Below, piece by piece: positions 13,238 through 48,332 of a stretch of 64,000 nucleotides of DNA. Under the pieces are notes generated by a model. That model was not told where the DNA came from, did not search any database, and was given only the letters and a program-made list of their open reading frames with translations. The stretch is taken from contig DATDXY010000019.1 of NCBI GenBank assembly GCA_036517155.1, forward strand, positions 9,913 to 73,912. The letters are read 5' to 3'. This DNA is from Minisyncoccota bacterium (GTDB taxonomy: Bacteria; Patescibacteriota; Minisyncoccia; UBA6257; 02-FULL-45-10c). The first letter of the stretch is position 1, and every line of letters starts with the position of its first letter. The translations under genes and the position numbers were made by a program.

Positions 13238-13241
13238 ATTG

Positions 13242-20768: not shown

Positions 20769-22079
20769 ATGCGTTTTACGCGATCGCAACTTGTGATTCT
20801 TGGCGTTATTAGTTTTTTTGTCGTGGTTGCGATTGGCATGCTGACCGGAATAATTCCCGGCCTTCGCACATCAGAAGATTTTGCTCCAGAACTAGAACTG
20901 AATGTCTGGGGCGTTTTTGATGATAATTATTTTTACGAAAATTTTGCCGCCTATAACGGAACCCGCCGAAATGTCACCATCAATTACAAACAAATCGACG
21001 CAAAGAATTACGAAAACATTCTCATTAATGCCATCGCTGCCGGCGCGGGACCAGACGTATTTATGTTTCACAGCAGTTGGTTGCCAAAACATTCAGACAA
21101 AATTACTCCCGCGCCAAATACTCTGACTCTGGAACAATTTCGCGGCCTTTTCCCGACTGTGGCAGAGCAAGATTTCGCTCCGGATAAGGTAGTCTATGCG
21201 CTTCCTTTATATATAGATACGCTCGCGCTGTATTATAATGAAGAAATTTTTGACAGCGCGGCAATTGCGATACCGCCTCGGAATTGGCTGGAGTTCCAAA
21301 ATATTATTCCAAAACTGCGCCAAATCAATCCAGATGGACAATTGGCGCGTTCCGCGGCAGCCATCGGCGGCACGAATACCACCACGCTTTATGCCAGCGA
21401 TGTATTGAGTCTTTTAATGCTTCAATCGGGAACGCAAATGACCGATCCAACATTTTCCCGAGCTACCTTCGCGGAATCGGTCAATGGATTTTATACTGGT
21501 CTGGATGCGTTGCAATTTTATACCAAATTCACCAATGCCAAAGATATTTACTACGCGTGGGATGAATCACTAGGCAATGCGATAGATGCGTTTGCCCAAG
21601 GAAAAACGGCAATGATCTTCGGCTATCGGGACACGCAGAAACTGATTCAAGAAAAAAGTCCATTACTGCGATTCAAAGCAACCGCGATGCCGCAACCGAA
21701 TCTTACTGACCCAGCGGTCAATTACGCTGATTATTGGGGCTTAGCGGTGTCCGCGAAAAGCCAATGGCCAACGTGGGGATGGGATTTAATCCAAGAATTA
21801 ACAACCAATGAAACTGCCGTGGAAACTTTTTTGCAAACATCCGGTTTACCGCCAGCACTCCGAACGCTTATCCAAAAATACAGTTCGGATCCGGATTTGG
21901 GCATTTTTGCTCGCCAAGCGCTTACCGCCCGATCTTGGCCGCAAATTAATAAACAATTAATAGCGCAAATATTTTCTCAAATGATTGCTGCGGTCGTCAA
22001 TCAACAGTTAGATCCCCGGGAGGCAATTACACAAGCAGAAAATGAAGTGACCGGTTTAATGCAAGTGAAAGGTCCGTAA
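20769..22079 (+). CDS. ABC transporter extracellular solute-binding protein (family 1-like), membrane-anchored
   Basis: 436 aa; N-terminal TM anchor, then AGAGPDVFMF and other motifs typical of sugar-type SBPs. Confidence 0.55.
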   Translation: MRFTRSQLVILGVISFFVVVAIGMLTGIIPGLRTSEDFAPELELNVWGVFDDNYFYENFAAYNGTRRNVTINYKQIDAKNYENILINAIAAGAGPDVFMFHSSWLPKHSDKITPAPNTLTLEQFRGLFPTVAEQDFAPDKVVYALPLYIDTLALYYNEEIFDSAAIAIPPRNWLEFQNIIPKLRQINPDGQLARSAAAIGGTNTTTLYASDVLSLLMLQSGTQMTDPTFSRATFAESVNGFYTGLDALQFYTKFTNAKDIYYAWDESLGNAIDAFAQGKTAMIFGYRDTQKLIQEKSPLLRFKATAMPQPNLTDPAVNYADYWGLAVSAKSQWPTWGWDLIQELTTNETAVETFLQTSGLPPALRTLIQKYSSDPDLGIFARQALTARSWPQINKQLIAQIFSQMIAAVVNQQLDPREAITQAENEVTGLMQVKGP

Positions 22080-22097
22080 TCCGGTATACTAATATTT

Positions 22098-22478
22098 ATG
22101 AAAATTAAATTTTTCGCAATTTTACTTCTACTAACCCTTGCGCTTCCAGCGACATCGGGTGCGGCTGGTTTAGTGCCCTGCAATGGCAACGACTGTGATT
22201 TTTGTGATCTTTTGACGCTTGGAAAAAATCTGATTAATTGGTTTGTGGAAATCTCTTTTGTATTCGCGGTTCTCTTTTTTGCCTGGGGCGCAATTGTTAT
22301 AATGACCGCCGGGGGATCACCGGGGCAATTCAGCAAGGGAACAACTATTATCTACACGGTCCTCACGGGAATTGGTATACTACTATTAGCTTGGGTATTT
22401 ATCGGCACCCTGCTGCAAGTATTAACCGGGTCGCCGTCCAAATTACCCTGGAGCGAAATCCAATGTTCAGTAAAATAA
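22098..22478 (+). CDS. TrbC/VirB2-like pilin family protein (paralog 1)
   Basis: 126 aa; signal peptide (MKIKFFAILLLLTLALPATSGAA) plus two closely spaced TM helices, the VirB2/TrbC topology. Confidence 0.5.
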   Translation: MKIKFFAILLLLTLALPATSGAAGLVPCNGNDCDFCDLLTLGKNLINWFVEISFVFAVLFFAWGAIVIMTAGGSPGQFSKGTTIIYTVLTGIGILLLAWVFIGTLLQVLTGSPSKLPWSEIQCSVK

Positions 22479-22843
22479 ATAAAACTGTATTCCAAAAATT
22501 GGTTTTTCTTAATGGAATCCTCTTTGCCCAAGGAAGCCGTTTTGGCGGGGAAACACCCTCCGCCGGCGGCAGCGTCACTAAAATTTCTCTTCCGGCCGTC
22601 CTTGGCATCCGCACTATCCAGGAACTGATTGATAGAATTATAAATTTTCTCTTGATTATAGGCACTTCCATTTTCACCGGTATGGTTTTATGGGCGGCCT
22701 ATCAGATTCTCACCGCTGGCGATAATCCGGAAAACGCCGCCGCTGGCCGAAGAACTATTTGGCACGCAACGATCGGCTATACCATTCTGTTACTTTCCAA
22801 GGGTATTGTGCTGGTCATCCAAAAAGTCTTAGGCGGCCAATAA
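22463..22843 (+). CDS. TrbC/VirB2-like pilin family protein (paralog 2)
   Basis: Start re-assigned to the ATG at 22463 (MFSKINKTVFQKLVFL…). Two TM helices (IINFLLIIGTSIFTGMVLWAAYQIL and TIGYTILLLSKGIVLVIQ). The track ORF 22238-22843 has an implausible N-terminal extension. Confidence 0.45.
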   Translation: MFSKINKTVFQKLVFLNGILFAQGSRFGGETPSAGGSVTKISLPAVLGIRTIQELIDRIINFLLIIGTSIFTGMVLWAAYQILTAGDNPENAAAGRRTIWHATIGYTILLLSKGIVLVIQKVLGGQ

Positions 22844-22915
22844 ACTGACAAATTTTTCTACGAATGATATACTCTAGACATATCCTGAAAGGTCGAGATT
22901 CAGAATCACACATCA

Positions 22916-23245
22916 ATGAAACAACTTATTAAAAAAATCGCTGCCGGCGCCGCTTTATTGGCTCCGACCGCATTCGCGCAAAATAGAGCGGTACCGCAAG
23001 TTCCGATTTCCTCTACCAATGATATTTTCAATATTATTGACCGGGTGTTGAATTTAGCGGCGACTCTCTTTTTCACTGTCGCGGTCTTCTTTATTTTCTG
23101 GGCAGGTTGGCTCTATCTCAATGGCGCCAGTAATGAAGAAAATTTAGGGAAAGCGAAAAATCAGCTGATTTATGCCGCGGTGGCAATTTTCGTCGGACTG
23201 ATTGCTTTCAGTTTCCCGCGATTAATTGAAAACTTCGTTCGATAA
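22916..23245 (+). CDS. TrbC/VirB2-like pilin family protein (paralog 3)
   Basis: 109 aa; signal peptide (…AALLAPTAFA) plus two TM helices. Confidence 0.5.
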   Translation: MKQLIKKIAAGAALLAPTAFAQNRAVPQVPISSTNDIFNIIDRVLNLAATLFFTVAVFFIFWAGWLYLNGASNEENLGKAKNQLIYAAVAIFVGLIAFSFPRLIENFVR

Positions 23246-23262: not shown

Positions 23263-23302
23263 AAAAAACCCCATCTTAAATTTAATAAGATGGGGTTTTT
23301 GT
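23263..23302. terminator. Bidirectional rho-independent terminator between convergent genes
   Basis: AAAAAACCCCATCTTA…TAAGATGGGGTTTTTGTTTT. Confidence 0.6.
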
Positions 23303-23303: not shown

Positions 23304-23843
23304 TTAAAGAACAATCATTTCTTTTCGTTGCTGCTCCGCTTTCTTCTTTTTTACCGGCGTCGGTAATTCGTTCTTTCCGGAGGAGTGGGTCTCAATCTGG
23401 ATTTTTGCCAGACCGGATTTTCCCCGCATCCGAAAAGTGCAGCTCGGCAGTTTGGTTTTCGGGAAGTTTACTTGCTGATCCTCAACTCGATACATCTGGT
23501 AACCCTGGGGGGTGATGAAACAATACTCTGCCCAACCCGGAGCATCCACGATGAATTTCGTATTGAGGGGCAAACGAATAATCCCAGACCATGCCTGCTC
23601 GGAAATACGTATTTCCTGTTCCGGCTTTTCCAGGGTGACATTGATGTCAGAAGACCCAAGGTCAATAACGATTTCGACTGGCGTGTTATTGAATAATGAG
23701 TTAATCCATCCAGCAATTTCGCTGCAGAGATACTTTACACCTAAGCCAAAGAGCCAGAACGCCGCGCACACGATAAGTGTGATCCATATTGGTCTTTGCC
23801 ATTCTCGAGGATTAATTGTCTGACTGTTTTTTACCGAAGACAT
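23304..23843 (-). CDS. Hypothetical membrane-anchored protein
   Basis: 179 aa; N-terminal TM (WITLIVCAAFWLFGLGV); overlaps the upstream SPFH gene by 32 nt (co-operonic). Confidence 0.4.
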   Translation of the reverse strand: MSSVKNSQTINPREWQRPIWITLIVCAAFWLFGLGVKYLCSEIAGWINSLFNNTPVEIVIDLGSSDINVTLEKPEQEIRISEQAWSGIIRLPLNTKFIVDAPGWAEYCFITPQGYQMYRVEDQQVNFPKTKLPSCTFRMRGKSGLAKIQIETHSSGKNELPTPVKKKKAEQQRKEMIVL

Positions 23844-24711
23844 GGGTCAATACCTCCTTGATTGCGTTCACAATCGGATCCCTGCTTCCTTTATCAAGAC
23901 CGAAGATCTTGCGATCTTCTTTAATCTTGCCATCCTGAATTTGAACGATCTTGGTGGCATCTTCCATATTTGTCCCGCCATTAGAAGCTTTCACCAATGA
24001 TTTGGCGCGCTCAACAACATTCTTCATTTCGGACAGCCGAGCAAGATTTTCTTGATTGACCGTTTCTTTTTTAACGGTCGCATCATAAAGCTCCTTTGGG
24101 AGTTCAACATCGCCAATAATAAACACTGGCAATTGAACTCCGTAATACTCGCGCATATTCATGCCGCCGTCTTCTCTGGTCGGATCAATTTCAACGTATC
24201 TCTTTTTCAGATCCTTGGCTTTGTCCTCCCATGAGAATGGCTTTCCTTCCACGGCGATTAATGCGTGCTCAATGAAGTCTTTGACCCTGCCAGTAATTTC
24301 AATGCTTTTATCCATCATCGTCTTTCGATTTCCGTATTCTTTTTGAATACTAGTCAGAAAAGATTTCAAGTTTTCTGTAATTGCCTTGAGTCGTTCTTCT
24401 TTTTTGAAGCGACGGAATTGCACAAGATCCTCGACGGAAGGTATAGTGGTGAAATCACAGTCAATTGTGACTGGTTCGCCGTTTTCCGTTTCTAAGACAA
24501 TCATAAAATGATGACTTAGAGTAACGAGATCGGTTTTTGAATTCTCTACTACATTTTCCCAAGGAAACATAAGATGCAAACCCGGTCCAAGCCCCCGTTC
24601 TTTGGTGGTGATGACATTCAATACCACCAAACCCTCGTAACCGCCAACAATTACCCAACACCGTGTAAATAAAATCACTGCGATGAATATGCTGCAGATT
24701 ATCCAGATCAT
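23812..24711 (-). CDS. SPFH/Band-7 (stomatin/prohibitin-like) domain protein
   Basis: 299 aa; N-terminal TM, then V…GYEGLVVLNVITTKERGLGPGLHLMFPWENV resembling the SPFH domain N-terminus, and a long coiled-coil-like C-terminus. Confidence 0.55.
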   Translation of the reverse strand: MIWIICSIFIAVILFTRCWVIVGGYEGLVVLNVITTKERGLGPGLHLMFPWENVVENSKTDLVTLSHHFMIVLETENGEPVTIDCDFTTIPSVEDLVQFRRFKKEERLKAITENLKSFLTSIQKEYGNRKTMMDKSIEITGRVKDFIEHALIAVEGKPFSWEDKAKDLKKRYVEIDPTREDGGMNMREYYGVQLPVFIIGDVELPKELYDATVKKETVNQENLARLSEMKNVVERAKSLVKASNGGTNMEDATKIVQIQDGKIKEDRKIFGLDKGSRDPIVNAIKEVLTHVFGKKQSDN

Positions 24712-24926: not shown

Positions 24927-24934
24927 CTTATATT

Positions 24935-36979: not shown

Positions 36980-37783
36980 ATGCTAATTAAGTTGTTAACC
37001 GCAACTGCGATTCTTGGCGTAGCTATAGCTAGCGCTTATTTGCTTATTCCAACCAGCGTCCCCGGGACACCAGCTTCGGCTAATTCAAATGAGATTCAAC
37101 AGAAAATCATTGGGGGGATGCCTAGAATAGAATCTTTACAAAATAATTCCAATCTTTCCGCAACGGCTCAACAAATAATTACTTCAACTCCAATAGGGGA
37201 ACAAAACCTTACAAATTCTCTAATCCAAAAAATACAAGAGAGTATTCGGGAGAAAAATCAAAGCGGACCGCAAATAGTAGGAGGACAGTCCACTTTTACC
37301 GCCACCGCTCCGGACAATCTCGCCCAACAAGCATTACAAGAAGCTACAACCAATCTTCCCGAAAATTCATTCCGACCGATTATTAATACCAATTTATTCA
37401 ATATTATTTTTGACAATAACCCAATCGCAATCCGAAATTATTTTGATCAATTTCAATCTATTATCAGTGCCGCGGGAGCGAAAATTCCAGGAATTGTATT
37501 GACTGATATACAGCAAATTACTAATCCGGAAATTCTAGTTCAGCTGATTAACGCGTATCGATCTGCGGCTGAGCAGTTGGCGCCAATTGATGTTCCATCT
37601 TCATTAATTTCTATTCACAAAAAAGAATTGGAACTTCTTGGCACCCAAGCCAATTTATTTGAACGAATCAGTAATTTTGAAATCGATCCCGCGGCGGCAA
37701 TTCTGGCAATCAATGAATTAGAAAACGTGAATGAAGAATTTATTGATCTGGGCGTAGAAATTAATGCTTTGTTTAAAAAATAG
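36980..37783 (+). CDS. Hypothetical secreted/anchored protein (first gene of the T4SS-like operon)
   Basis: 267 aa; N-terminal TM/signal (LLTATAILGVAIASAYLLI). Confidence 0.4.
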   Translation: MLIKLLTATAILGVAIASAYLLIPTSVPGTPASANSNEIQQKIIGGMPRIESLQNNSNLSATAQQIITSTPIGEQNLTNSLIQKIQESIREKNQSGPQIVGGQSTFTATAPDNLAQQALQEATTNLPENSFRPIINTNLFNIIFDNNPIAIRNYFDQFQSIISAAGAKIPGIVLTDIQQITNPEILVQLINAYRSAAEQLAPIDVPSSLISIHKKELELLGTQANLFERISNFEIDPAAAILAINELENVNEEFIDLGVEINALFKK

Positions 37784-37802
37784 TAAAAACTAGTTAATTT
37801 TT

Positions 37803-39404
37803 ATGAAGAAATTTCTTTTAATACTTATTTCTACAACTTTTTTGGCTAATATTTTCCTATCTTTGCCAGCTACAACTCACGCAGTTCCAGTTGAGGTTAT
37901 TAATCCAGTCTTCATTGCTAATCCAATTCTTTTTACCTCAGATGTGCCGAACAAAGTAGTGGCAGCGGCTCATACAAAATTAACAGCAGCTGGGTGGATT
38001 GCCGAAGCAACTCGCTGGGGGAAAGATCTTGCCAGAGAAATTGCTTTAACCATCAAAAAAAGCGCGTTTGCTTTGTTCAAAAAACGAGTGTTGGATCGAA
38101 TGGTAGATGATTTGGTGCAATGGATTACATATGGTGATGATAAAAAACCAAAGTGGGCGGAAGGTGATTTTGAGGAACTGACTCAAAACGCCGCGCAAGC
38201 GGCCATAGGGGATTTAGTGCTTAAAACCAGCTTAGCTCAAATTTGTAGCCCGTTTAAAGCGAAACTTCTTCTTACCTTAACCCCACCGGGACCGGTCAGC
38301 GATCAAGTAAAATGCACCTTAGATCAAATTACTGGTAATATCAATTCTTTTCTCGCAGATTTCAAAAATGGCGGCTGGCTTGCCTATAACGAACTTTGGC
38401 AGCCAAGAAATAATTATTATGCAACCGTGTTGATGACGCTGGATTCCGCTGGGCTCGCAGGCGCAAGAGCGGCGGCCGCCCAACAAAGCGAAGTAATCGC
38501 GGGCCAGGGTTTTCTTGCCACCACAAGATGTGACTATTATCCGGATCCCGATGGCATCTACAAAGACAAATTTGGCCACGCTCTTACCGACCAGGATCTC
38601 ACCGCAATGAACAATGGCGAATGGGTAAACACTTATAGCCGAAAGTGTTACAAAACTACGCCCGGATCAACGATTGCTGGTCTTGCGCTGAAAGCCAATA
38701 CAACATACATTGATTGGCTGATTAACGCAGAAGATATTGACGCATATGTTACGGCCGTTGCTGATGCTCTCATTAATCGAGTGATTAAAGATGGTGTGAA
38801 TGGACTTAAAGGACTTTCTAATAAGAAACCAGATGCGCCGCAACAAAGCCCCGGCAGACCATGCGATGGTCTAACCGGGGCAGCGCTCGCATCGTGCCTT
38901 GGTTACGACAATATTTCCCAGATTAATTACATCAACAATCGTTCTGCCTTAGCATCGCAATCTAATGATTCTATCGAACCCCGCCAAAAAGCTTCTACAT
39001 TGCTCACTCAGGTTATTAGCAAACAAAGCACTCTGGTAACTGCTTTAGAAAATTTGTACACCTGCCAACAATCTACGGGTTTCACTCAAGAAGCAAAAGA
39101 TACTCAATTAGAACTTGATGTGGAAAAAGATAAATTGGAAAGCTTACAAACTCAGTTGGAAGATAATCAATCCGTGATTGATAATTTAGAACAATCAAAA
39201 ATAAATCTGGAAAATACCTCGCAAGAAGATGGCAATTCGCTTATTGTACAAACTGATTATCTTCAATCGGTTGGCGATCCACTGACCGCCAATCAAGTTT
39301 TGGATGACGCGCAAGCAGAATTTGACGGCCTGATCGATTTAGAAACAAAAATTACTTCTGTGCAGGCGCAAAATACCTGCCAACCGACAAAGCCAACTCT
39401 ATAA
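37803..39404 (+). CDS. Hypothetical secreted protein with C-terminal coiled coil
   Basis: 533 aa with a signal peptide; the C-terminal ~100 aa are Q/E/L-rich heptad-like. Confidence 0.45.
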   Translation: MKKFLLILISTTFLANIFLSLPATTHAVPVEVINPVFIANPILFTSDVPNKVVAAAHTKLTAAGWIAEATRWGKDLAREIALTIKKSAFALFKKRVLDRMVDDLVQWITYGDDKKPKWAEGDFEELTQNAAQAAIGDLVLKTSLAQICSPFKAKLLLTLTPPGPVSDQVKCTLDQITGNINSFLADFKNGGWLAYNELWQPRNNYYATVLMTLDSAGLAGARAAAAQQSEVIAGQGFLATTRCDYYPDPDGIYKDKFGHALTDQDLTAMNNGEWVNTYSRKCYKTTPGSTIAGLALKANTTYIDWLINAEDIDAYVTAVADALINRVIKDGVNGLKGLSNKKPDAPQQSPGRPCDGLTGAALASCLGYDNISQINYINNRSALASQSNDSIEPRQKASTLLTQVISKQSTLVTALENLYTCQQSTGFTQEAKDTQLELDVEKDKLESLQTQLEDNQSVIDNLEQSKINLENTSQEDGNSLIVQTDYLQSVGDPLTANQVLDDAQAEFDGLIDLETKITSVQAQNTCQPTKPTL

Positions 39405-39407
39405 ACC

Positions 39408-41330
39408 ATGAAACGTTTTCTCAAAATAATCGGCATCCTGGCAATCACACTTTTGATTATTTTGCCTTTAGCGCCCGCTGCTCGCGCGGAAGTAACTTGG
39501 GTTGAGGGTATTGGCATTTCTGTTTTCGCCAAAGGATTAACCACTCTTACTTACTTAATCGGTTATGCTGGTGGCTTACTTGTCCAACTTGCTGCGCAAA
39601 TGGTTAATTGGTCTTTGAATTTAAACAGCACCATTCTTTCCAGCCGACTGGTGCAGGTTGGGTGGCTTATCACCCGCGATCTTGCCAATCTTGGCTTTGT
39701 GCTGGCAATTATTTTAATCTCCTTTTTTACTATTTTCCGGTTCAATAATTACGACACAAAGAATATGTTGGTAAAATTGGTTATTTCTGCCTTACTAATC
39801 AATTTCAGTTTGGTTATTGCCGGTTTATTCATTGATTTCTCTGGAATTCTGACTAACTTTTTTGTCTCTAAAGCTACCGGCGGCGATCCCGCAAAAATGG
39901 CAGAAAATTTAGCCGGCGCATTTCAAGTGCAAAAATTACTCCAATCAACCGATAACTTGGACGTACTGACAAAAACCGCCGGTCAATTAAGCGATAGTTT
40001 CGCTGGTTGGCCAATTTTTTTCGCTTCGCTATTTTTCTCGGTTATTTTTTCTCTCATTGCCGCGATATCTATCGGCGCGGTTGGAGTAATGCTTTTTATT
40101 CGCTATATCTGGCTGGTGATGTTGGTTATTCTTATGCCAATCGCTTGGTTGCTTCGCGTTCTCCCAGAAACCGAGGGGAGGTGGAAAGAGTGGTGGAATG
40201 ATTTTTTACATTGGGTATTTTTTGCTCCAGCCGTCACTTTTTTTATCTATCTTGCTTTTGCGTTATTGGAAAATAAAGCAGAGGCGACAAAAACCTTGTC
40301 TTTGGAAGCGGCGAGCGGATTATTTAGCGTAGGCACCTTACAACAGGGCGCCGGGGAAATTATCGGTCAGATGATCGCCTTAACTGGAATTCTGATTGGG
40401 GGATTGAAAGTTGCCAGTAAAATGGGCGTTACCTTTGCCAATACCGCAATGGGGTTTGCGAATAAAGCAACCAGCGCAATTCTTGGGGGGACCATCCGAG
40501 GCACTGGGAAAATGGCTGGCGGAGCAGCTGGCGGAGCAGCGGGTTGGATCAAAGAAAAAGCGCTTACCGCCGGAGCTGGCGGCGGCAAAGAAAGTTATTT
40601 GCAAAGAGCTTCCGCGTGGCTTGCGAATAAACCAATCCCTGGAGCGCGCGCGTTAAGCACCGGCATCGCCAAAACCACCAAAGCAACACTTCAAGATGTG
40701 GAAAAATATCAAAAAGATAATATTGCCGATTTAACAAATGACGCTTTAATAGCAATGGCAAAAAATCCTTTAAATACCAGTACAGCGAATGCGGCAATTG
40801 CCCGGGAACTGGCTACGCGTCGAGACGCAACTGGCGTACCGATCGTTAATAAAGAAAAAGGCGCTTTCAAAGATGACGATCGCTTGTTAAGTCTTATGCG
40901 GGATGCGGATAGATTTGGATCCGCTGACGCGTTAATCAGCTCGCGTCCAGACCTTGGATTGCAATTGGGTAAAACAAAAGTAGAAATCTATGCCAAAGTT
41001 AAATCTGAAGATCGAGATAAACTTGGAGCGAAATTCTTTTCTGACGAAGACGGTCAAAAACTCTTATTAAAAATTAAGGGTGAGGATTTGGGTAACTTCG
41101 CCAAGAAATGGAGCGGTTCTGATCAAGAAGAGTTTATAGAATCTCTGCACCAAGCAATTACTAAAATCACTGACATCAATAGCAATGACGCAAAACAATT
41201 CCGAGCCATTGCCAGCCAAATTCGCCGCAGTCCAGCCTGGCCGGTAAAAATAGATCTTCAGAAAATTACTAATCTCTATACACCAGAACAATTAAAGAAA
41301 GTTCAGGGTGAAGAAGAAAGAAAATCATAA
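39408..41330 (+). CDS. VirB6/TrbL-like polytopic membrane protein with long hydrophilic C-terminal tail
   Basis: 640 aa; signal peptide plus about six TM helices in the first ~330 aa, Gly-rich linker, hydrophilic C-terminus. Topology and operon position match VirB6/TrbL/PrgH-type channel proteins. Confidence 0.45.
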   Translation: MKRFLKIIGILAITLLIILPLAPAARAEVTWVEGIGISVFAKGLTTLTYLIGYAGGLLVQLAAQMVNWSLNLNSTILSSRLVQVGWLITRDLANLGFVLAIILISFFTIFRFNNYDTKNMLVKLVISALLINFSLVIAGLFIDFSGILTNFFVSKATGGDPAKMAENLAGAFQVQKLLQSTDNLDVLTKTAGQLSDSFAGWPIFFASLFFSVIFSLIAAISIGAVGVMLFIRYIWLVMLVILMPIAWLLRVLPETEGRWKEWWNDFLHWVFFAPAVTFFIYLAFALLENKAEATKTLSLEAASGLFSVGTLQQGAGEIIGQMIALTGILIGGLKVASKMGVTFANTAMGFANKATSAILGGTIRGTGKMAGGAAGGAAGWIKEKALTAGAGGGKESYLQRASAWLANKPIPGARALSTGIAKTTKATLQDVEKYQKDNIADLTNDALIAMAKNPLNTSTANAAIARELATRRDATGVPIVNKEKGAFKDDDRLLSLMRDADRFGSADALISSRPDLGLQLGKTKVEIYAKVKSEDRDKLGAKFFSDEDGQKLLLKIKGEDLGNFAKKWSGSDQEEFIESLHQAITKITDINSNDAKQFRAIASQIRRSPAWPVKIDLQKITNLYTPEQLKKVQGEEERKS

Positions 41331-41338
41331 AATATTTT

Positions 41339-42214
41339 ATGGAAATTTCTAACTTACAATCTATCAGCGCCGCATTTCAGTCATTGCCAGAAAAAATTAA
41401 AGATTGGCTTGCGTCGGTTGATATTATTTTGCGCATCGAGCAAATATCAATTCGTTTCAATTTCAATAATTTGGAACAAGAAACTATTATTCCAAATTTA
41501 ATTTTACGGCTTTGTATTCAAAATTTAGACCCGCGAGATTTTATTAATACCCTAAGCATTCAACTTGGAGTTGATTTTGAAACCGCAAAAAAAATAACCC
41601 TAGATATTGAACGAGATATTCTTCGGGTTATTGAAATAGAACTCCGTCGCGATGTTGGAGTAGATATTAAGAATCTTTATTTTGGCAAACCCGGAGATCA
41701 AGCGCTGCGACCAATTAATGCGCCAACCCCATCTAGGACTCAAGAAACTCAGCCCCAATCAATACCAATAAAACCAATGGAAATCCCATCGGGGCCAAAC
41801 GTATCCTCTTGGTTAAAACCAAAAGATCAACCCGTTATCCAGACTCCTCCGGTAGAAAAACCCCAAACCGTTCAAGCGTCACTAACCAAGCAAAAGCCTT
41901 TAATTCCCAATGGCGGTCCAAAAATTGACTTGGAACACTTTGAAATTAAAGGGGAACCGTTTATTTTACACCAAGAACCGGGTACGACGCCGGCGACTGA
42001 AGCACCAAGGGTTTCTCCGGGATTTTCATTTAAAATCCCAACTTCATCTTTAACTTCTGAAAAACCCACTCCACAGAAATCAGTTTCGGTAAAATTAGAA
42101 ACTCCTCGGACGGTTAATTACAGCGATTTTCGAACCCCGTTGCCACCGCCTTCGCCCAACTCAGATACAAATCGTAAAAATACTGTTGATTTACGCAATA
42201 GCAATAATAAATAA
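41339..42214 (+). CDS. Hypothetical Pro-rich protein
   Basis: 291 aa; Pro-rich C-terminal half. Confidence 0.4.
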   Translation: MEISNLQSISAAFQSLPEKIKDWLASVDIILRIEQISIRFNFNNLEQETIIPNLILRLCIQNLDPRDFINTLSIQLGVDFETAKKITLDIERDILRVIEIELRRDVGVDIKNLYFGKPGDQALRPINAPTPSRTQETQPQSIPIKPMEIPSGPNVSSWLKPKDQPVIQTPPVEKPQTVQASLTKQKPLIPNGGPKIDLEHFEIKGEPFILHQEPGTTPATEAPRVSPGFSFKIPTSSLTSEKPTPQKSVSVKLETPRTVNYSDFRTPLPPPSPNSDTNRKNTVDLRNSNNK

Positions 42215-42222
42215 ATTATCAA

Positions 42223-42720
42223 ATGCAATTTCAAGTTCCGCAATTTATTGAAACCGAAGATAAAATTATCGGCCCACTCACACTAAAACAATTTCTCTAT
42301 CTCGCTCTGGCTGGAGGAGCGTGTTTTGGATTATATTTTATTTTAGACACCTGGCTGTGGCTTCTAGTTTCTATTTTTGTAGGAGCCATCGCCGCCGCCT
42401 TGGCATTCATCAAAGTCAATGGCCGCCCATTGCCGGTAATTGCTTTTGCCGCTTTTCAATATTATTGGAAGCCAAGATTTTATTTGTGGAAACACCAGGC
42501 AGAAACCGGACCAACAACTCATTTTCCGGAAGTGAAAAAACCGATTTTGGAACGATTGCGGGAACAATTACTGACTTCCAAAGCACCCATCCCAAAAAGA
42601 GAAAAAATCCTGAAACAACCGATTTTGGAAACCGCTGGCAAGCAAAGTAAAGAGCGATTTGAAATCCTTCGACGCATCACGGGAGAACGCGAGGTCTCTC
42701 GCCGCGTGGATTATCGTTAA
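42223..42720 (+). CDS. PrgI/VirB3-like small membrane protein
   Basis: 165 aa; MQFQVPQFIETEDKIIGPLTLKQFLYLALAGGACFGLYFIL followed by a second TM. It sits immediately upstream of VirB4, as in Gram-positive T4SS (PrgI-PrgJ). Confidence 0.45.
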   Translation: MQFQVPQFIETEDKIIGPLTLKQFLYLALAGGACFGLYFILDTWLWLLVSIFVGAIAAALAFIKVNGRPLPVIAFAAFQYYWKPRFYLWKHQAETGPTTHFPEVKKPILERLREQLLTSKAPIPKREKILKQPILETAGKQSKERFEILRRITGEREVSRRVDYR

Positions 42721-42743
42721 CCGAACTAGTATAATAAGGTAAC

Positions 42744-43397
42744 ATGCCAAACACACAAGAAGCATCGCCAATCCAACAATTTATTGAATTGGAGTCAATT
42801 GAAAATGGCGTTATCCATTTGAAAAATGGTGGATTAAGGAAAATTTTGCTGGTGTCCGGAATTAATTTTGACCTAAAATCGGAAGAGGAGCAGGGGATGA
42901 TTACTTACGCCTTTCAAAGTTTTCTCAATACCCTGGATTTTTCTCTCCAATTCTTTATCCATTCTCGAAAGCTCAATATTGACGATTATTTGGTGAAATT
43001 GGAAGATCGAGAAAAACAAGAACCCAGTGAATTGCTCAAAAATCAAATTTCCGAATATCGGGAATTTATCCGCGCGTTTGTCAGTCAGAACGCGATTATG
43101 GCAAAAACATTTTTCGTGATTGTTCCTTATAATCCATTGCGAATTCCCAAAGCCGGTACCGCCTTCACGGAAAAATTGACTCGATTATTCAGCAAAAGCA
43201 CCCCCAGCGAACAACCCCAAACTAGCGAACAAGAACAAATGGAACAACTGAATCTTCGCATAGATCAGGCAATCGCGGGCTTGAACCAAATTGGGCTTCG
43301 GGCCGTGCCATTAGATGATGATGAACTTTCGGAGCTGTTTTATAACCTCTATAATCCCGCGTCAGTCGAGCAAAAGAAAATTGACACGTCTGAATAA
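42744..43397 (+). CDS. VirB4/TrsE-family N-terminal domain, separated from the ATPase domain by an in-frame TAA
   Basis: 217 aa; IHLKNGGLRKILLVSGINFDLKSEEEQGMITYAFQSFLNTLDF matches the conserved N-terminal region of Gram-positive VirB4/TrsE proteins. It is in the same frame as 43401-45110. Confidence 0.55.
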   Translation: MPNTQEASPIQQFIELESIENGVIHLKNGGLRKILLVSGINFDLKSEEEQGMITYAFQSFLNTLDFSLQFFIHSRKLNIDDYLVKLEDREKQEPSELLKNQISEYREFIRAFVSQNAIMAKTFFVIVPYNPLRIPKAGTAFTEKLTRLFSKSTPSEQPQTSEQEQMEQLNLRIDQAIAGLNQIGLRAVPLDDDELSELFYNLYNPASVEQKKIDTSE

Positions 43398-43400
43398 TTT

Positions 43401-45110
43401 ATGGAATCAGAAAAAAAACTTATCAATATCATTGCCCCATCCGGCCTGCAAGTAGAGCCACAGTACTTGAAATTGGGGAATAAACTCGCAAAGACTTTGT
43501 TCGTATTTTCCTACCCCCGTTATCTGGCCACGGGTTGGTTTTCCGGAATTATTAATATGCCGGAATTATTGGATATCTCCATTTTCATCCACCCAGTAGA
43601 TACGGTACTCGCGCTTCGCACCCTCCGCCGAAAAGCTACTCAAGTGGAATCCCAACTGATTGAACGCCAACAAAAGGGGTTGGTTCGGGATCCGATTCTA
43701 GAAACCGCTTTTCAAGACGTGGAATCTCTGCGCGATTCCCTGCAGCAATCCCGCGAACAATTATTCAATGTTGGTGTATACATCACTTTTTACGCCGACA
43801 CGGTGGAACAATTAAATAAATTGGAAAATAAAATTTCCGCGTTTTTAGAAAGTCGTTTGATTTACGCTAAACCGGCGTTATTTCAACAATTAGAAGGGTT
43901 CGCATCCACTCTTCCGCTTAATCAAGACAAATTAGAAGTCCATTCGCCGCTTAATTCCAGTCCACTTTCCTCAATTTTCCCATTCACCTCAGCAAACCTT
44001 ACTTCGGATGAGGGTATTCTTTATGGCATTAATCGGCACAATAATACTTTGGTTATTTTTGATCGATTTTCACTGGAAAATGCTAATTTAGTTATTTTCG
44101 CCAAGTCTGGCAGTGGCAAATCTTATGCGACCAAACTGGAAGCGCTGCGATTATTGATGATGGGCGTGGATGTAATTATTATTGACCCGGAAAATGAATA
44201 TGAAAACATGGCAAAGGCAGTTGGTGGTAGTTATTTCCGCATCTCTCTCGCCTCCGACCACCATATCAATCCCTTTGAACTTCCTATTGTCGCGTCCGGC
44301 GACGATCCGAGTGATTCGTTGAAATCCCACATCGTGAACTTATCCGGATTATTGAAAATAATGCTCGGCAAGCTTACTCCGGAAGAAGATGCGATCTTGG
44401 ATCGCGCTTTGGCGGAAACTTACGCTTCCCACGATATTGTCGCGGGAAAAGATTTTTCCCAAGCGGTGCCGCCACTGTTGGAAGATTTAGAAAAAATTCT
44501 CCTGAATATGGAGGGTGGTCGGGGATTAAGCCAACGTTTATATAAATTCACTCAGGGCAGTTATGCCGGTTTTACCAATCAACCAACTAATGTCGATATT
44601 AAAAATCGGCTGATTGTCTTTTCTATCCGTGACCTCGAAGAGGAATTACGGCCAATCGCAATGTATATTGTGTTGAATTTTATTTGGAATCTTATCCGCG
44701 CCAATCTTAAAAAACGGGTGCTGATTGTGGATGAGGCGTGGGTGTTGATGAAATATGAAGACGGGGCTTCGTTTATGTTTGGTTTGGTAAAACGTTGCCG
44801 AAAATATTTCTTAGGAGTCACCACAATTACCCAAGACGTGGAAGATTTCTTGAAATCTCCGTATGGCCGGCCGATTATTACCAATTCTTCGTTACAACTC
44901 CTTCTTAAACAATCACCAGCGATGATTGATGTAGTAATTAAGTCCTTCAATCTTACCGACGGAGAAAAAAGCCTTTTATTGGAAGCGGGGGTTGGCGAAG
45001 GATTATTTTTTGCCGGTTTAAATCATGTCGCGATTCAGGTGGTCGCTTCGTATATTGAAGATAAAATTGTGACTACCAAACCAGAACAAATTCTGGAACA
45101 ACATTCATGA
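43401..45110 (+). CDS. VirB4/TrsE-family type IV secretion ATPase (C-terminal ATPase domain)
   Basis: 569 aa; Walker A FAKSGSGKSYAT, Walker B LIVDEAW, VirB4-type C-terminal motifs. Confidence 0.85.
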   Translation: MESEKKLINIIAPSGLQVEPQYLKLGNKLAKTLFVFSYPRYLATGWFSGIINMPELLDISIFIHPVDTVLALRTLRRKATQVESQLIERQQKGLVRDPILETAFQDVESLRDSLQQSREQLFNVGVYITFYADTVEQLNKLENKISAFLESRLIYAKPALFQQLEGFASTLPLNQDKLEVHSPLNSSPLSSIFPFTSANLTSDEGILYGINRHNNTLVIFDRFSLENANLVIFAKSGSGKSYATKLEALRLLMMGVDVIIIDPENEYENMAKAVGGSYFRISLASDHHINPFELPIVASGDDPSDSLKSHIVNLSGLLKIMLGKLTPEEDAILDRALAETYASHDIVAGKDFSQAVPPLLEDLEKILLNMEGGRGLSQRLYKFTQGSYAGFTNQPTNVDIKNRLIVFSIRDLEEELRPIAMYIVLNFIWNLIRANLKKRVLIVDEAWVLMKYEDGASFMFGLVKRCRKYFLGVTTITQDVEDFLKSPYGRPIITNSSLQLLLKQSPAMIDVVIKSFNLTDGEKSLLLEAGVGEGLFFAGLNHVAIQVVASYIEDKIVTTKPEQILEQHS

Positions 45111-45493
45111 ACCAGAGATCAAAAATAGATATGGTGGACGGATTTATTATGCTCGCTATGGCCGGTATTGCTGACGGGACCGAATTTCTAATGAATTATG
45201 TTGCCGCTATTCCAGTAATAGGATTGGGTGGACCATTAATCGCATCGCTGATTAGTTTTTTGGTATCGGCGATTTTACTAGCTTGGTTTATAATAAAAGG
45301 AATACCGTTGGGTTATCTTTTATCCGGCAGCGCGGTAGATATGATGCCGTTGGTCAATATGCTTCCAGCAAAAACCGCCGCGGTGATTGCGACAATTTTA
45401 AAAGACCGGGGAGCTGCCAATATAAAAACAACATCCCCAGAAACCAAAGAAGAAAAACCAAAACAAGAAGAAGAATTAAAAGAAGCAGTATAA
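45107..45493 (+). CDS. Hypothetical two-TM membrane protein
   Basis: 128 aa; overlaps the VirB4 stop by 4 nt; two TM helices then a K/E-rich tail. Confidence 0.4.
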   Translation: MNQRSKIDMVDGFIMLAMAGIADGTEFLMNYVAAIPVIGLGGPLIASLISFLVSAILLAWFIIKGIPLGYLLSGSAVDMMPLVNMLPAKTAAVIATILKDRGAANIKTTSPETKEEKPKQEEELKEAV

Positions 45494-45494
45494 T

Positions 45495-46169
45495 ATGCAC
45501 CGTTTAATATTTTCTATCATCTTTGTCGCCAGCATTTTAATTGCCGTTACTTCTTCCGCCCAAACCGCTCCGGAATTTATCACTTCTTGGAGAGCGATTA
45601 ATTATGTCCCAGCCACATACCTAGGCAAGATTTTCCCGACTAAGGGAAGTATTATCATTGTTGGTTTTGATCTCTTGGATAAAAATCAATTTGTGAACCT
45701 CTCTAAAGCAGAAATCCAATGGGATATTGATAACACGGTTCTCCAAACGGGGATTGGGATTCAACAAGTTCAATTTCAAAGTAATACGAATACCAATCAG
45801 CACGTCGTTCGCATAACAATTCGTAATTTTGGAACTTCCGAACTCAACTACACCTTTACTATCCCAATCAAAAAACCGCTTTTAATCATTGATGCTCCGG
45901 TGCCAAATCGACAATTGAGCCTTGGTCCCACCTTGTTCCGGGCTTTGCCATATTTTTTCAACACAAATAATCTTAGTACTGTGCGGTTTCAATGGTCCCG
46001 TAATGGACAAATCGTCACCGGCGATGCCAACACCCCAAACGCTTTAACACTTGAGATTTCTTCCGAAGGAAATCCGGTGGATAGCGATATCACTCTTTCC
46101 GCGTCCGCGCAAAATATTTTAAACCCGCTGGAAAATGCAACACAATTACTTAATTTAAAAATACGCTAA
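45495..46169 (+). CDS. Hypothetical secreted protein
   Basis: 224 aa with a signal peptide (IIFVASILIAVTSSAQT). Confidence 0.4.
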   Translation: MHRLIFSIIFVASILIAVTSSAQTAPEFITSWRAINYVPATYLGKIFPTKGSIIIVGFDLLDKNQFVNLSKAEIQWDIDNTVLQTGIGIQQVQFQSNTNTNQHVVRITIRNFGTSELNYTFTIPIKKPLLIIDAPVPNRQLSLGPTLFRALPYFFNTNNLSTVRFQWSRNGQIVTGDANTPNALTLEISSEGNPVDSDITLSASAQNILNPLENATQLLNLKIR

Positions 46170-46172
46170 TTT

Positions 46173-47255
46173 ATGAAATATTTTATCACAAACTTTATTC
46201 TGATAATTTGCATACTTAGCTTTATACCCAAGACATTTGCCGAAGAAGCAGATGCACGTGGTCTTATTTGTCCATCAGGCAGCACGGGTTATTACAAACT
46301 TGTTATGAAAAATATTTCCGGAGTTACTGAAGAGGTTGCGAAAAAATCATTAAAAAACATCACTCTAGGAATATTGACTCTCGGTGGATATAATTTATAT
46401 TCTGCATTTAATTTTACATCAGAAACTGGGCAGTTTTATGATAGGTATCTTGAACGTTGCGCTTCTAATATTCTTAAAGATTGTCCCGCGGATAGAATTA
46501 CAGCCGATCCCAATAATACTAATCAAAAAATTTGTTTAGTGAATCCGATAAAACTTACTAATCCAAATCTATTAAAAAATAAGGAACCGATTCAGGCCTA
46601 TACTTCCCAAGTCGCTATTCCTTGCAAGGAAATTGCTGGGGGGAAGTGCCCCAATCAAGATACTGGTCCAGCGGCCTATATTGCCCGTCTTTATACTTTT
46701 GGATTAATGATTGCCGGCGCAGCCGCGTTTGGAATGATTATTTTTGGAGGATTTAAATATGTTTTAGCCGCCGGGAATCTCGCGTCTACCCAAGAAGCCA
46801 AGGAAACCATTACTGGGGCAATTTGGGGATTGTTACTGCTTTTAATGGCTTATGTGATTCTCTACACGATTAATCCTCGATTAGTTAATGTTCAAGATCC
46901 AAACGCGCCGACTCTTTTTAGAGACTTTTCTCAAGAAGCTAGCATTGACCAACCCAACCAATTACTTCCAGCTATTGAGCCGGGCATCAAAGATCCGAAT
47001 TGCCGCATTTCTATTCAAGTGGATTTAACCACGCCAACCATTGGCGACCCCAACAATCCTAATGGTAAACCAATTTTGGAAAGTGGTAGAAAATCAGTGT
47101 GCGCGCCCTGGGGTTGTAATACGAATTCGTTCCGTACTATCGAAGGAATTTGTGAGTGTAATTTAGGATTTGCTCCTGACGCCGATGGAATTTGCGCAAA
47201 AACACTTGGCCCAGAACAAAATAGGGGATTTTTTCCTCAACCAAATACACAATAA
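46173..47255 (+). CDS. Cys-rich secreted protein with embedded pilin-like two-TM module
   Basis: 360 aa; signal peptide, Cys-rich ectodomain, internal hairpin of two TM helices (YTFGLMIAGAAAFGMIIFGGFKYVLAAGN…ITGAIWGLLLLLMAYVILYTI) resembling the VirB2/TrbC core. Confidence 0.4.
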   Translation: MKYFITNFILIICILSFIPKTFAEEADARGLICPSGSTGYYKLVMKNISGVTEEVAKKSLKNITLGILTLGGYNLYSAFNFTSETGQFYDRYLERCASNILKDCPADRITADPNNTNQKICLVNPIKLTNPNLLKNKEPIQAYTSQVAIPCKEIAGGKCPNQDTGPAAYIARLYTFGLMIAGAAAFGMIIFGGFKYVLAAGNLASTQEAKETITGAIWGLLLLLMAYVILYTINPRLVNVQDPNAPTLFRDFSQEASIDQPNQLLPAIEPGIKDPNCRISIQVDLTTPTIGDPNNPNGKPILESGRKSVCAPWGCNTNSFRTIEGICECNLGFAPDADGICAKTLGPEQNRGFFPQPNTQ

Positions 47256-47258
47256 AAT

Positions 47259-48332
47259 ATGAATAAAACAATTAAAATAGTTCTCATTTTAGCCGTAATT
47301 CTTCTTACTTTTGTGGGCGGATATTTTATTCTAAAAAATCTCGTGGAAAATAACGTTACTGATTTAGGACAAATTAAAACCGACAATGAAACGGGTCAAC
47401 CCATACTCTCTTCTTCAGCTCTTCAACAATTAATCTTTACCCCGATAGTTGATTATTGGATCCAATCGGATAATGACATTTACGCGTTAACCGAAACTGG
47501 GCAAGTAATTACGGTCAAAAATGGAGAAGTGGAACTGATAAATTCCCAAACTTTTTCTAAAATTCACTCTCTCGCGCCATCGTTTGACGGTGAAAAAATC
47601 ATTTTGGAATTCAATTTCCCCGATGCTCCTCGTTTCAATATTTTTAACACCACAGACGGAACCTGGCAGGGACTTCCCAGCGCGACTCGCGCTGCCGCCT
47701 GGTCACCAAATTCTTTGGAAATCGCATACTTGGAAGGCAATGCTTTAAAAATTCTGGAACCGAAAAAACAAACCACTCGAACGATAATTTCTATTTTTCA
47801 GCCGGACGCGCAGCTGAAATGGGTTGAGCCAAATCAAATCCTGATTAATTCTTACCCAAGCGCCTTACTCACCACTCGTATTTGGTCATTAAATCTCAAA
47901 ACAAAGTCTATCACTCCGTTTTTGAATGAAACCGGTGCGGTGTTGACTTGGTCTAATGATAAAGAACTTGCCTTAAAACTTCGCAGTTCTGCGCAGGGTT
48001 CGGTTTTAAGCCTTTTCCACAAGACTGGCACTCAAATTGATTTGAATATTCTGACTCTTCCGGAAAAATGCGAATTAACTAACAACCAAATTTATTGCGG
48101 CGTTCCAAAAATTATCCGAGAAGGCCTTACTTTATTAGATGACTATTACCAGCGCAATGTGTATTTTGACGACAATCTTTATTTAATTGATTTAACTAAT
48201 GGAACTAATTCTTTACTTTTGGAAAATCCTGGATTTCCAATTGATGTAAGCCATCCCAAACTTACGTCAGACAATCAACTGCTTTTTATCAACCGCTACG
48301 ATAATAAATTGTATACTTTAAAGTTAAAATAA
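47259..48332 (+). CDS. Hypothetical membrane-anchored protein (possible beta-propeller)
   Basis: 357 aa; N-terminal TM; last gene of the operon. Confidence 0.4.
   Translation: MNKTIKIVLILAVILLTFVGGYFILKNLVENNVTDLGQIKTDNETGQPILSSSALQQLIFTPIVDYWIQSDNDIYALTETGQVITVKNGEVELINSQTFSKIHSLAPSFDGEKIILEFNFPDAPRFNIFNTTDGTWQGLPSATRAAAWSPNSLEIAYLEGNALKILEPKKQTTRTIISIFQPDAQLKWVEPNQILINSYPSALLTTRIWSLNLKTKSITPFLNETGAVLTWSNDKELALKLRSSAQGSVLSLFHKTGTQIDLNILTLPEKCELTNNQIYCGVPKIIREGLTLLDDYYQRNVYFDDNLYLIDLTNGTNSLLLENPGFPIDVSHPKLTSDNQLLFINRYDNKLYTLKLK

Follow-up and report, generated by a model that had tools for sequence, protein, structure and literature searches.

Three consecutive genes for small pilin-like proteins, lying apart from the type IV secretion system (T4SS) operon on the same chromosome, raise the question of whether they encode variants of one subunit or distinct subunits of one structure. 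The genes, here called pil1, pil2 and pil3, belong to a metagenome-assembled genome of Candidatus Paceibacterota (candidate phyla radiation (CPR)/Patescibacteria) and lie on a chromosomal stretch of 64,000 nucleotides (assembly GCA_036517155.1, contig DATDXY010000019.1), which as a whole is referred to below as the window. A preliminary description of this DNA had reported three consecutive plus-strand open reading frames (ORFs) of 126, 126 and 109 aa between a solute-binding protein (SBP) gene and a bidirectional terminator, and all of these are present, with an SBP_bac_1/8 gene upstream and a 15-bp hairpin downstream. Judged by orthology and gene order, the trio consists of ancient orthogroups that have been kept in a fixed order across many lineages. 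Since each type has its own orthologues and a kept position, we read this as the signature of non-equivalent subunits and not of interchangeable antigenic variants, in a locus that can still expand.

22098..22478, plus strand: pil1, type-1 PF18895 pilin, 126 aa; signal peptide, Cys loop C28-C33, hairpin, C-terminal tail ..TGSPSKLPWSEIQC123SVK
22463..22843, plus strand: pil2, type-2 PF18895 pilin, 126 aa; weak leader, Gly/Pro-rich N-terminal stretch, I-S-L-P-x-x-L motif, hairpin, end ..KVLGGQ
22916..23245, plus strand: pil3, type-3 PF18895 pilin, 109 aa; signal peptide ..AFA↓Q, hairpin, end ..ENFVR

Family membership and the three pilin types

All three proteins score above the gathering cut-off of PF18895 (T4SS_pilin; 26.6 bits), with 33.8 bits for pil1, 40.0 for pil2 and 35.9 for pil3, and the same family is matched by 18/18 aligned relatives (best E 2e-12). 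A local family hidden Markov model (HMM) run against the window ORFs returned exactly four matches, namely the trio and residues 167-234 of a 360-aa protein at 46173-47255. The PF18895-type family is large, an exhaustive profile search giving 86,780 representatives at 50% identity with E<=1e-3 and 18,263 with E<=1e-10. Because all three ORFs exceed the curated cut-off and each has conserved orthologues in many genomes, we take the match to this family to be no product of chance. Two of the proteins are already in NCBI, as VJH70_02905 (identical to pil1) and VJH70_02915 (identical to pil3), both labelled 'hypothetical protein'.

Membership of another small-membrane-protein family, for example the holins, would have spoken against pilins, and no such membership was found in the trio or in the 18 relatives. 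In the Pfam scan of these relatives (E<=10) none reached the cut-off of any other family, and no holin family appeared even at that threshold. The small subunit of tripartite ATP-independent periplasmic (TRAP) transporters, DctQ (PF04290), was matched weakly by 3/18 members, and pil3 stayed below its cut-off (21.8 bits vs 28.3). There was no DctM among the window ORFs scanned against Pfam, and the neighbouring SBP is MalE-like (SBP_bac_1/8) and not DctP-like.

By hydropathy, each protein begins with a leader, after which come two hydrophobic helices linked through a short loop of polar, basic character (TAGGSPGQFSKG in ORF1, TAGDNPENAAAGRR in ORF2 and NGASNEENLGKAKN in ORF3). An AlphaFold2 (AF2) model of pil1 from an 18-sequence alignment places helices at 35-69 and 75-110, i.e., a two-helix hairpin, with a mean predicted local distance difference test (pLDDT) score of 73.8. 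Textbook signal peptides can be read from sequence and hydropathy in pil1 (..ATSGA↓AG) and pil3 (..AFA↓QN). The claim of a signal peptide plus two transmembrane (TM) helices in each protein is therefore upheld for the helices throughout and for the leaders of pil1 and pil3, and only partly for pil2, whose leader is weak. The pil2 ATG lies inside the 3' end of pil1, with an overlap of 16 nt. In a homologue with a mature part apparently identical to that of pil2 (P0004), the first ~30 residues are wholly different (window 22463-22560); because the start differs despite this apparent identity, rapid indel turnover at the pil1/pil2 overlap is suggested.

Pairwise identity among the three window pilins is only 21-26%, so that the paralogues are divergent, and their homologues split into three groups with hallmarks of their own. 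Behind its leader, type 1 carries GLVPCxGxxCxxC, and its C-terminal tail reads ..TGSPSKLPWxxIQCxx (tail peptide ..TGSPSKLPWSEIQC). Type 2 has a variable N-terminal extension, Gly/Pro-rich and of low complexity or larger, an I-x-LPNPL motif and the end ..LLG, and type 3 is short and ends in ..ENFVR or ..ILR. Type-specific HMMs set the groups apart by >100 bits. The order x-GyrA-SBP-type1-type2-type3 is found in 7 species-level genomes, one of which ends at a contig edge after type 2, and within these 7 genomes the nearest relative of every gene is the one at the corresponding position. Compared with the window, type 1 is 44-57% identical, type 2 38-50%, type 3 36-40%, the SBP 49-54% and GyrA ~75%; type 3 is thus the most divergent type between genomes (36-40% vs 44-57% for type 1).

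In metagenome arrays the order 1-2-3(n) predominates and additional genes are mostly type-3 copies. Where at least 3 kb were available, three pilin genes were counted in 19/34 loci and four to seven in 14/34. Types 1 and 2 carry very large ectodomains in some of these arrays, of up to 1208 and 594 aa respectively. At L019 the same locus comprises eight pilin genes, among them a 7-module fusion and four type-3 copies that look ~80% identical by eye. Further afield, two Dojkabacteria-like loci (L009 6770-8635 and L010 6770-8472) hold three consecutive pilin-module genes between pnp and NUDIX/yebC, with differing Cys patterns (2+0, 2+2, 0+2). The type HMMs gave no clean assignment of these trios to types 2 and 3, and trios may be a recurrent solution beyond the SBP-linked clade. 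The preliminary description had taken tandem paralogues as a sign of antigenic or functional diversification; for this trio the antigenic half is unsupported, given old orthogroups in a fixed order, and the functional half fits better.

The module also occurs fused. In such 'polypilins' one ORF runs through 2-17 PF18895 hairpin modules in a row, with nothing like a signal-peptidase site separating them. One of them, P0019 (606 aa, 7 modules), is a continuous ORF in two independent assemblies, within the SBP-pilin type of locus (L019 10001-11821 on the 120-kb ENA contig k141_1518664, and Logan L020 4068-5888). P0023 has 1775 aa and 17 matched stretches, and P0020 and P0029 are further examples. 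Among the best 150 matches of the exhaustive search most had at least two matched stretches, although summed scores favour such proteins. An apparent fusion of types 1 and 2, P0035, lacks its N-terminus and may reflect a frameshift at the overlapping junction; it was not used as Rosetta-stone evidence. In the literature examined on patescibacterial arrays we found no description of polypilins.

The solute-binding protein gene and the control signals of the array

The gene immediately upstream of pil1 is as follows.

20769..22079, plus strand: membrane-anchored MalE-like SBP (SBP_bac_1/8); Pfam PF13416 7e-22, PF01547 3e-20

The protein has a single N-terminal TM anchor, and its best PDB relatives are sugar and maltodextrin ATP-binding cassette (ABC) binding proteins. 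A profile search of metagenome contigs with this SBP gave 80 loci at 38-54% identity, 65 of which had at least 400 nt downstream and could be evaluated. In 65/65 of these the next gene in the same direction, immediately past the SBP stop, is a pilin-module ORF, with a median gap of 6 nt and a maximum of 235 nt; clustering of the 65 loci by SBP identity gives 61 groups at 90% and 44 at 70%. The link was kept in L019 at an SBP identity of only 28%, with a methyltransferase gene between gyrA and the SBP gene. Spacing between GyrA and the SBP is variable, from 0 to 3466 nt, and in one genome (L102; GCA_007376445.1, VMGF01000001.1, 912-9136) the gyrA/lactamase_B_3 block is inverted and SBP-pilin-pilin-(118 aa)-x-Band_7 is intact. 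That this stretch from the SBP to Band_7 survived the inversion of the GyrA block shows that the cassette is inherited as a unit. On this evidence of synteny, the SBP gene is the array's most tightly linked partner and not the mere boundary as which it had been noted.

The link is clade-specific and not universal, because the Dojkabacteria-like trios have no SBP. The large protein search with the SBP profile returned close orthologues only and did not reach the outer limit of the pilin-linked SBP clade. It had been asked whether homologues in related genomes sit inside T4SS operons, and the orthologues were found instead in the same SBP-led locus. No ABC permease was seen among the window ORFs scanned against Pfam; several ORFs of at least 100 aa were left out of that scan, and the rest of the genome is outside the view. 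The link between SBP and pilins is not mentioned in PMC12102498, and nothing on it was found in the literature search.

Downstream, the array is closed by a terminator.

23264..23300, either strand: bidirectional intrinsic terminator closing the array; 15-bp stem, A-run upstream, T-run downstream

This terminator serves pil3 plus the convergent gene at 23304-23843, and a GC-rich terminator hairpin lies 3' of type 3 in 7/7 genomes compared. Convergent on it in the window are genes for a 179-aa single-TM protein (23304-23843, minus strand) and an SPFH/Band_7 protein (23812-24711, minus strand). A small TM protein and an SPFH/Band_7 gene were found convergent downstream in 14/26 metagenome loci by iterated search (2/28 with the first SPFH HMM), and an SPFH gene is in that position also in L001, L005, L019, L101 and L102, making SPFH a frequent and not an obligatory neighbour. 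It may be a functional partner, as a membrane scaffold, or merely conserved synteny.

The signals within the array set type 3 apart from types 1 and 2.

22085..22090, plus strand: TATACT -10-like box, 7 nt before the pil1 ATG; consensus match
22845..22873, plus strand: promoter-like site CTGACA-17-TATACT in the pil2-pil3 spacer; 10/12 match with TG extension
22888..22895, plus strand: invariant 8-mer AAAGGTCG in the pil3 5' untranslated region (UTR); 7/7 aligned spacers

Upstream of the type-1 ATG, 7/7 genomes have a TATA(A/C)T-like box whose end is 6-8 nt from the start codon, and no Shine-Dalgarno-like sequence, which suggests a leaderless pil1 mRNA starting within the 18-nt gap between the SBP gene and pil1. 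Types 1 and 2 either overlap or are separated by 4-10 nt, and the spacer before type 3 is always 69-130 nt. In 7/7 genomes (the window, L001, L002 and L004-L007) a -10-like box precedes AAAGGTCG, the rest of the spacer being unconserved. The 8-mer is exact in 20/37 complete metagenome arrays, and the exact 10-mer AAAGGTCGAG occurs once in the window. Rfam has no family in the pil2-pil3 spacer, giving only a weak terminator-hairpin match and a tRNA.

The 8-mer resembles a Shine-Dalgarno sequence but lies 20-70 nt upstream of the type-3 ATG, which is too far. As a Shine-Dalgarno sequence for an upstream start or leader peptide it was rejected, there being no consistent reading frame across genomes: the codon that follows it by 4-5 nt (ATT or TTG in most genomes) shares the reading frame of pil3 in the window (ATT) and in L002 (TTG), and in other genomes opens ORFs of 2-12 codons or meets an immediate stop. 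In addition, four type-3 5' UTRs (L004 3469-3611, L005 4669-4792, L006 6724-6839 and L007 7941-8038) contain an 8-bp RNA-type hairpin, UCGAGUAA-ccuacguaa-UUACUUGA, with a G-U pair and compensatory changes (U-A to C-G in L005; C-G to U-A in L007). It is found neither in the pil3 UTR of the window nor in L001 and L002. A promoter-like site of its own, a conserved 5' UTR and a terminator, together with amplification in other genomes, suggest that type 3 is the abundantly made (major) subunit.

Beyond the array, three observations concern tRNA genes and gene starts. A tRNA-Ile with anticodon UAU is encoded at window 13241-13314 (minus strand), an uncommon bacterial way to read AUA, instead of the lysidine-modified CAU. 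A tRNA-Leu(UAG) gene (24845-24927, plus strand) overlaps the 5' end of the listed ORF 24851-26038, the true protein of which must begin later, near MKTFFSIII. Matches by tblastn to the first 40 residues of this ORF in other loci are a reflection of the tRNA gene.

The origin-proximal T4SS operon and the relation to VirB2/TrbC pilins

The system that would assemble such pilins is encoded further along the window.

36980..48332, plus strand: origin-proximal MPF_FATA-like T4SS operon, 11 genes, between ksgA and jag-yidC-rnpA-dnaA
39408-41330, plus strand: VirB6-like protein, 6-7 TM, in the T4SS operon
42223-42720, plus strand: PrgI/VirB3, in the T4SS operon
42744-43397, plus strand: TraC/TrsD-like protein (N-terminal VirB4 homologue), in the T4SS operon
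43401-45110, plus strand: VirB4 P-loop protein, in the T4SS operon
46173..47255, plus strand: 360-aa protein with an embedded PF18895 hairpin (residues ~162-233) between Cys-rich ectodomains, in the T4SS operon

With dnaA at 50036, the order is ksgA - T4SS - jag/yidC/rnpA - dnaA - dnaN (36980-52721). An origin-proximal T4SS is a reported patescibacterial pattern (PMC12102498), with which the window agrees, and a genome of Harrisonbacteria (L017) has the same operon in the same origin-side arrangement. The trio had been described as lying away from this operon, which is correct: the operon starts 13.7 kb downstream of pil3, and the trio is outside the virB4/virB6 cluster. The distance to virB4 is ~20 kb or, by count, ~20 coding sequences (CDS), a borderline 'near' under the 20-CDS criterion of PMC12102498. 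No relaxase or coupling protein is in view in the window.

A further pilin-like hairpin had been noted in the 360-aa protein, and it is real. Residues 167-234 reach 24.6 bits with Pfam PF18895, just under the cut-off of 26.6, and E 3e-11 with the local family HMM. Members of this protein's family share a conserved core, IPCxxxxGGxCP...LYTINPxLVxLxNP, flanked by variable Cys-rich ectodomains. The AF2 model has a pLDDT of 59 overall, with ectodomains too poor to read, and of ~80 in the hairpin region. NCBI names the protein 'pilin', and it holds the same operon position in Harrisonbacteria.

Two neighbouring genes are recorded here in their own right. Directly after virB4, a 128-aa protein (45107-45493, plus strand) has two adjacent TM helices and matches neither the PF18895 HMM nor any Pfam family. 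At 33303-34316 (minus strand), 2.7 kb upstream of the operon, lies the gene for a LysM plus Peptidase_M23 protein, a candidate cell-wall hydrolase in place of VirB1. Replacement of VirB1 by another cell-wall hydrolase has been discussed for Paceibacteria (PMC12102498).

How far the pilins are TrbC/VirB2-like was the central claim of the preliminary description, and it stands in part. Membership of the TrbC/VirB2 family itself (PF04956) does not, in that the three window pilins gave no match at E<=1 and stayed below the family cut-off, and among the 18 relatives two matched weakly (best 3.3e-4). PF18895, the topology and a collinear profile match above controls speak for the resemblance. That match was obtained with hhalign, using a 169-sequence alignment of single-module members on the family side and six annotated VirB2/TrbC genes from plasmids of Agrobacterium, Rhizobium, Sinorhizobium, Sphingobium and Bradyrhizobium on the other. 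It gave a probability of 80-88% and E 2-3e-6 (at the upper end 87.8%, with E 3.4e-6), with a score of 37.5 over ~100 collinear columns that run through leader, AxA↓Q cleavage region, helix 1, loop and helix 2. The 61 controls scored lower: 13.2 for the reversed profile, with maxima of 14.1 among 30 column shuffles and of 24.6 among 30 block shuffles, vs 37.5 for the real one. These scores are to be read with the VirB2 side consisting of six alphaproteobacterial sequences and with membrane-protein profiles being able to inflate scores. The VirB2 resemblance is supported, and remote homology to VirB2/TrbC is probable.

Two other pilin-like families bear on this resemblance. The first is the Mbov_0395 / MMCAP2_0565 family from Mycoplasma ('pilin-like conjugal transfer protein', NCBIfam NF045849), which pil3 matches with 26.2 bits (E 4.8e-6), under the 40-bit cut-off, and pil1 and pil2 do not match; 7/18 aligned PF18895 members, pil3 included, do so below cut-off (best E 1.2e-6). 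These matches fit the reported MPF_FATA ancestry of the patescibacterial T4SS. Both families are small hairpin proteins tied to a monoderm MPF_FATA-type conjugation system. However, the Mycoplasma integrative and conjugative elements are mobile, and the window trio is chromosomal and origin-proximal, with no mobility genes nearby except a XerC/D-type recombinase gene. The second is the archaeal Ced/Ted pilin. A Foldseek search of the PDB with the pil1 model gave the Aeropyrum pernix conjugation pilus (8dfu) as the best relevant structural match (prob 0.84, TMt 0.65, root-mean-square deviation 3.1 A, 73 columns), but with E 1.8. The pilus in 8dfu is a VirB2-like hairpin pilus with an import role from an organism without an outer membrane. 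It differs from pil1 in lineage and machinery, and no sequence similarity between the two was detected.

The classical pilins offer the closest comparison for the mature subunit. VirB2/TrbC proteins (Agrobacterium T-pilin, RP4 TrbC and others of the diderm MPF_T class) share with the window pilins a long leader, an AxA↓Q-type site, two helices and a short loop. They differ in that the window trio is not beside virB3/virB4, its host is monoderm and it has three distinct subunits, as against one major pilin. The ends of T-pilin and RP4 TrbC are closed by head-to-tail peptide cyclisation. A TraF-like cyclase was not identified for the window trio, in which the ends of type 1 may be joined via a disulfide instead. 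In a survey of 42 distinct small type-1 proteins, 34/42 show a 3+1 pattern, with three Cys ahead of helix 1 (C-x3-12-C-x2-C) and a single one behind helix 2. Five lack both the third Cys and the C-terminal tail Cys and keep the first two only, and one (L045) shows the reverse, the third and the tail Cys without the other two. The third and the tail Cys thus covary. In pil1, with its four invariant Cys, the simplest reading is a loop disulfide C28-C33 plus a clamp C36-C123, which because of this covariation would tie the N-terminal segment to the C-terminal tail. In the hairpin topology both clamped segments would be extracytoplasmic, making a closure much like VirB2/TrbC cyclisation. The reading assumes oxidising conditions at the cell surface.

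What the array may build

Given these results, we favour the view that the trio contributes to a heteromeric, T4SS-assembled surface fibre or conduit of three non-redundant subunits, and we put the whole chain at roughly even odds (about 0.5). The pilins would be exported and their leaders cut at AxA↓Q-type sites, leaving mature pilins as membrane hairpins whose two ends face outwards and whose short basic loop lies on the inner side. Type 1 would be closed by the disulfides C28-C33 and C36-C123, substituting for the VirB2/TrbC cyclisation, and type 3 would form the bulk of the structure as its major subunit. Types 1 and 2 are likely to be minor or adaptor subunits because large or low-complexity ectodomains are common in them elsewhere. 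The oriC-adjacent VirB4/TrsD/VirB3/VirB6-like machine would then pull the hairpins from the membrane and polymerise the heteromeric fibre or conduit at the contact with the host cell. The 360-aa module protein may join it, and the SBP would act at the same surface, plausibly binding host-derived carbohydrate.

Several points weigh against this chain. The trio lies outside the T4SS operon, so that its dependence on the T4SS is argued from homology, and a plain pilus model does not predict the strict SBP coupling. The h-region of the pil2 leader (LVFLNGILFA) is broken by K and N, a weakness that the pil2 orthologues elsewhere, with normal leaders, do not share. Promoter and leaderless calls are consensus matches, and no disulfide-forming enzyme was seen among the window ORFs scanned. 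On the VirB2 side, searches of PDB-chain sequences with 3- and 18-sequence profiles brought up no VirB2-like chain (the LRR kinases and the designed repeat protein that they returned look like chance matches), and a small profile-profile test (18 vs 6 sequences) reached an hhalign probability of only 5%. The 8dfu match is not significant, all Foldseek E-values being >1 and two-helix hairpins being common folds; generic hairpins, including ATP synthase subunit c (TMt 0.58), score like 8dfu. Fused modules are awkward for a filament of extracted monomers and would suit an oligomer embedded in the membrane just as well. A T4SS pilus has yet to be observed in a patescibacterium (PMC12857230), and the MPF_FATA T4SSs of monoderm Firmicutes have no pilus (PMC12857230, PMC12102498). 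The surface filament put forward in the preliminary description is therefore unproven, none having been seen for any patescibacterial T4SS (PMC12857230, PMC10633639).

The same observations lend some weight to a membrane-embedded ring, pore or platform of hairpins on which the SBP docks, an uptake or signalling device with or without a T4SS channel. It would make sense of the 65/65 adjacency of SBP and pilins, of the lack of an ABC permease among the window ORFs scanned and of fusions of 7-17 hairpins, which without internal cleavage sites resemble polytopic membrane proteins. Fused c-subunit hairpins occur in rotary ATPases, and subunit c is among the fold matches to pil1; the weak DctQ matches in 3/18 members and the scaffold gene of the SPFH/Band_7 type convergent downstream in 14/26 loci point the same way. 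However, the profile likeness is to VirB2/TrbC and not to transporter subunits, and the DctQ and other transporter matches are below cut-off and typical of hydrophobic composition. The family is, moreover, embedded in T4SS clusters elsewhere (PMC12102498, PMC10633639), as in the Harrisonbacteria operon. The docking partner of a MalE-type SBP would be an ABC permease, and one may lie elsewhere in the genome. To our knowledge, MalE-type SBPs dock on such permeases and not on TRAP-like or hairpin proteins. We consider a device of this kind, the main alternative, possible but unlikely. In a more elaborate version, VirB2-derived hairpins (type 3 as the bulk, type 1 disulfide-clamped, type 2 as adaptor) would make up a heteromeric tube or pore, and the SBP would capture host carbohydrate at the contact site and feed this T4SS-derived conduit, as an importer replacing the ABC permease. 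This combined device, which would be of a previously unrecognised kind, strikes us as very unlikely as it stands.

A role in antigenic variation or host-strain matching has been speculated for pilin arrays in general (PMC12102498), and the trio could on that account be a set of interchangeable variants. In favour of this, its 21-26% identity resembles the mean of 25% in published arrays (PMC12102498), no type varies more between genomes than type 3, and some loci have four to seven genes, their extras mostly of type 3, or eight, as in L019 with its four similar type-3 copies. Interchangeable variants would not, however, be expected to keep their own orthologues and position in many lineages, nor to differ in architecture as these do (Cys clamp and tail in type 1; low-complexity extension and LPNPL in type 2; promoter and UTR in type 3). 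Variation by amplification seems to concern type 3 in other genomes and not the trio, and no recombination, inverted-repeat or switching element was noticed on reading the sequence, in which no dedicated repeat search was made. We regard the variant explanation as distinctly unlikely for this trio, though it may hold for the expansions of type 3 elsewhere. That the three belong to some unrelated family of small membrane proteins, be it holins, toxin-like peptides or small transporter subunits, and only mimic pilin topology can be argued from the commonness of two-helix hairpins, the Foldseek E-values and several sub-threshold matches to unrelated membrane families. It is essentially excluded by the PF18895 matches of 18/18 members, none of which reaches another family's cut-off, by the ~86,780 representatives of the family, by the PF18895 module within the T4SS operon and by a collinear VirB2/TrbC profile match far above shuffled controls.

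The class of array to which the trio belongs is already known, and novelty is to that extent modest. Tandem arrays of VirB2-like pilins in Patescibacteria have been reported as 441 arrays of 2-11 genes in 383 assemblies, with a mean identity of 25%, and a pilin gene is near virB4 in 1135/1948 assemblies (PMC12102498). In Southlakia epibionticum ML1 the array lies in the T4SS cluster SEML1_0006-0019 and is essential (PMC10633639). The window conforms to the published definition in having at least two tandem divergent pilin genes together with VirB4, TrsD-like and PrgI proteins (VirB4 counted by presence). It has in common with published arrays PF18895, the tandem arrangement, ~25% mutual identity, a CPR genome and an MPF_FATA-like T4SS beside oriC and ksgA. 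It differs in lying 13.7 kb from the T4SS operon (~20 CDS from virB4) and not inside the cluster, and in its SBP linkage and three old orthogroups in fixed order. The SBP link, the Cys patterns and the fused modules are not mentioned in the array papers PMC12102498 and PMC10633639, and as far as our literature search shows, the fixed three-type organisation, the SBP partnership, the predicted disulfide clamp and the polypilins appear new, as do the separate control signals of type 3 and its amplification elsewhere.

Patescibacteria account for a large share of bacterial diversity, cannot make most of their building blocks and depend on host cells, and their T4SS, which like its pilin array is essential in the one species examined for this, has a role that is called completely unknown in the literature (PMC11665869, PMC10633639). 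A testable handle on this system is provided by three conserved subunits that are non-equivalent and not a set of variants. The predicted disulfide would close one subunit as cyclisation closes the classical conjugative pilins, and natural fusions of as many as 17 modules limit the possible arrangements of the hairpins. The co-inherited, carbohydrate-type SBP suggests a connection of these pilins with nutrient capture or with recognition of the host surface. Should its linkage be mere operon hitch-hiking, the array would be an ordinary member of the published class; if it is functional, it would be a first clue to what passes through this system. Were the importer reading to prove true, it would give a concrete function to the essential and unexplained T4SS of these ultra-small episymbiotic bacteria.

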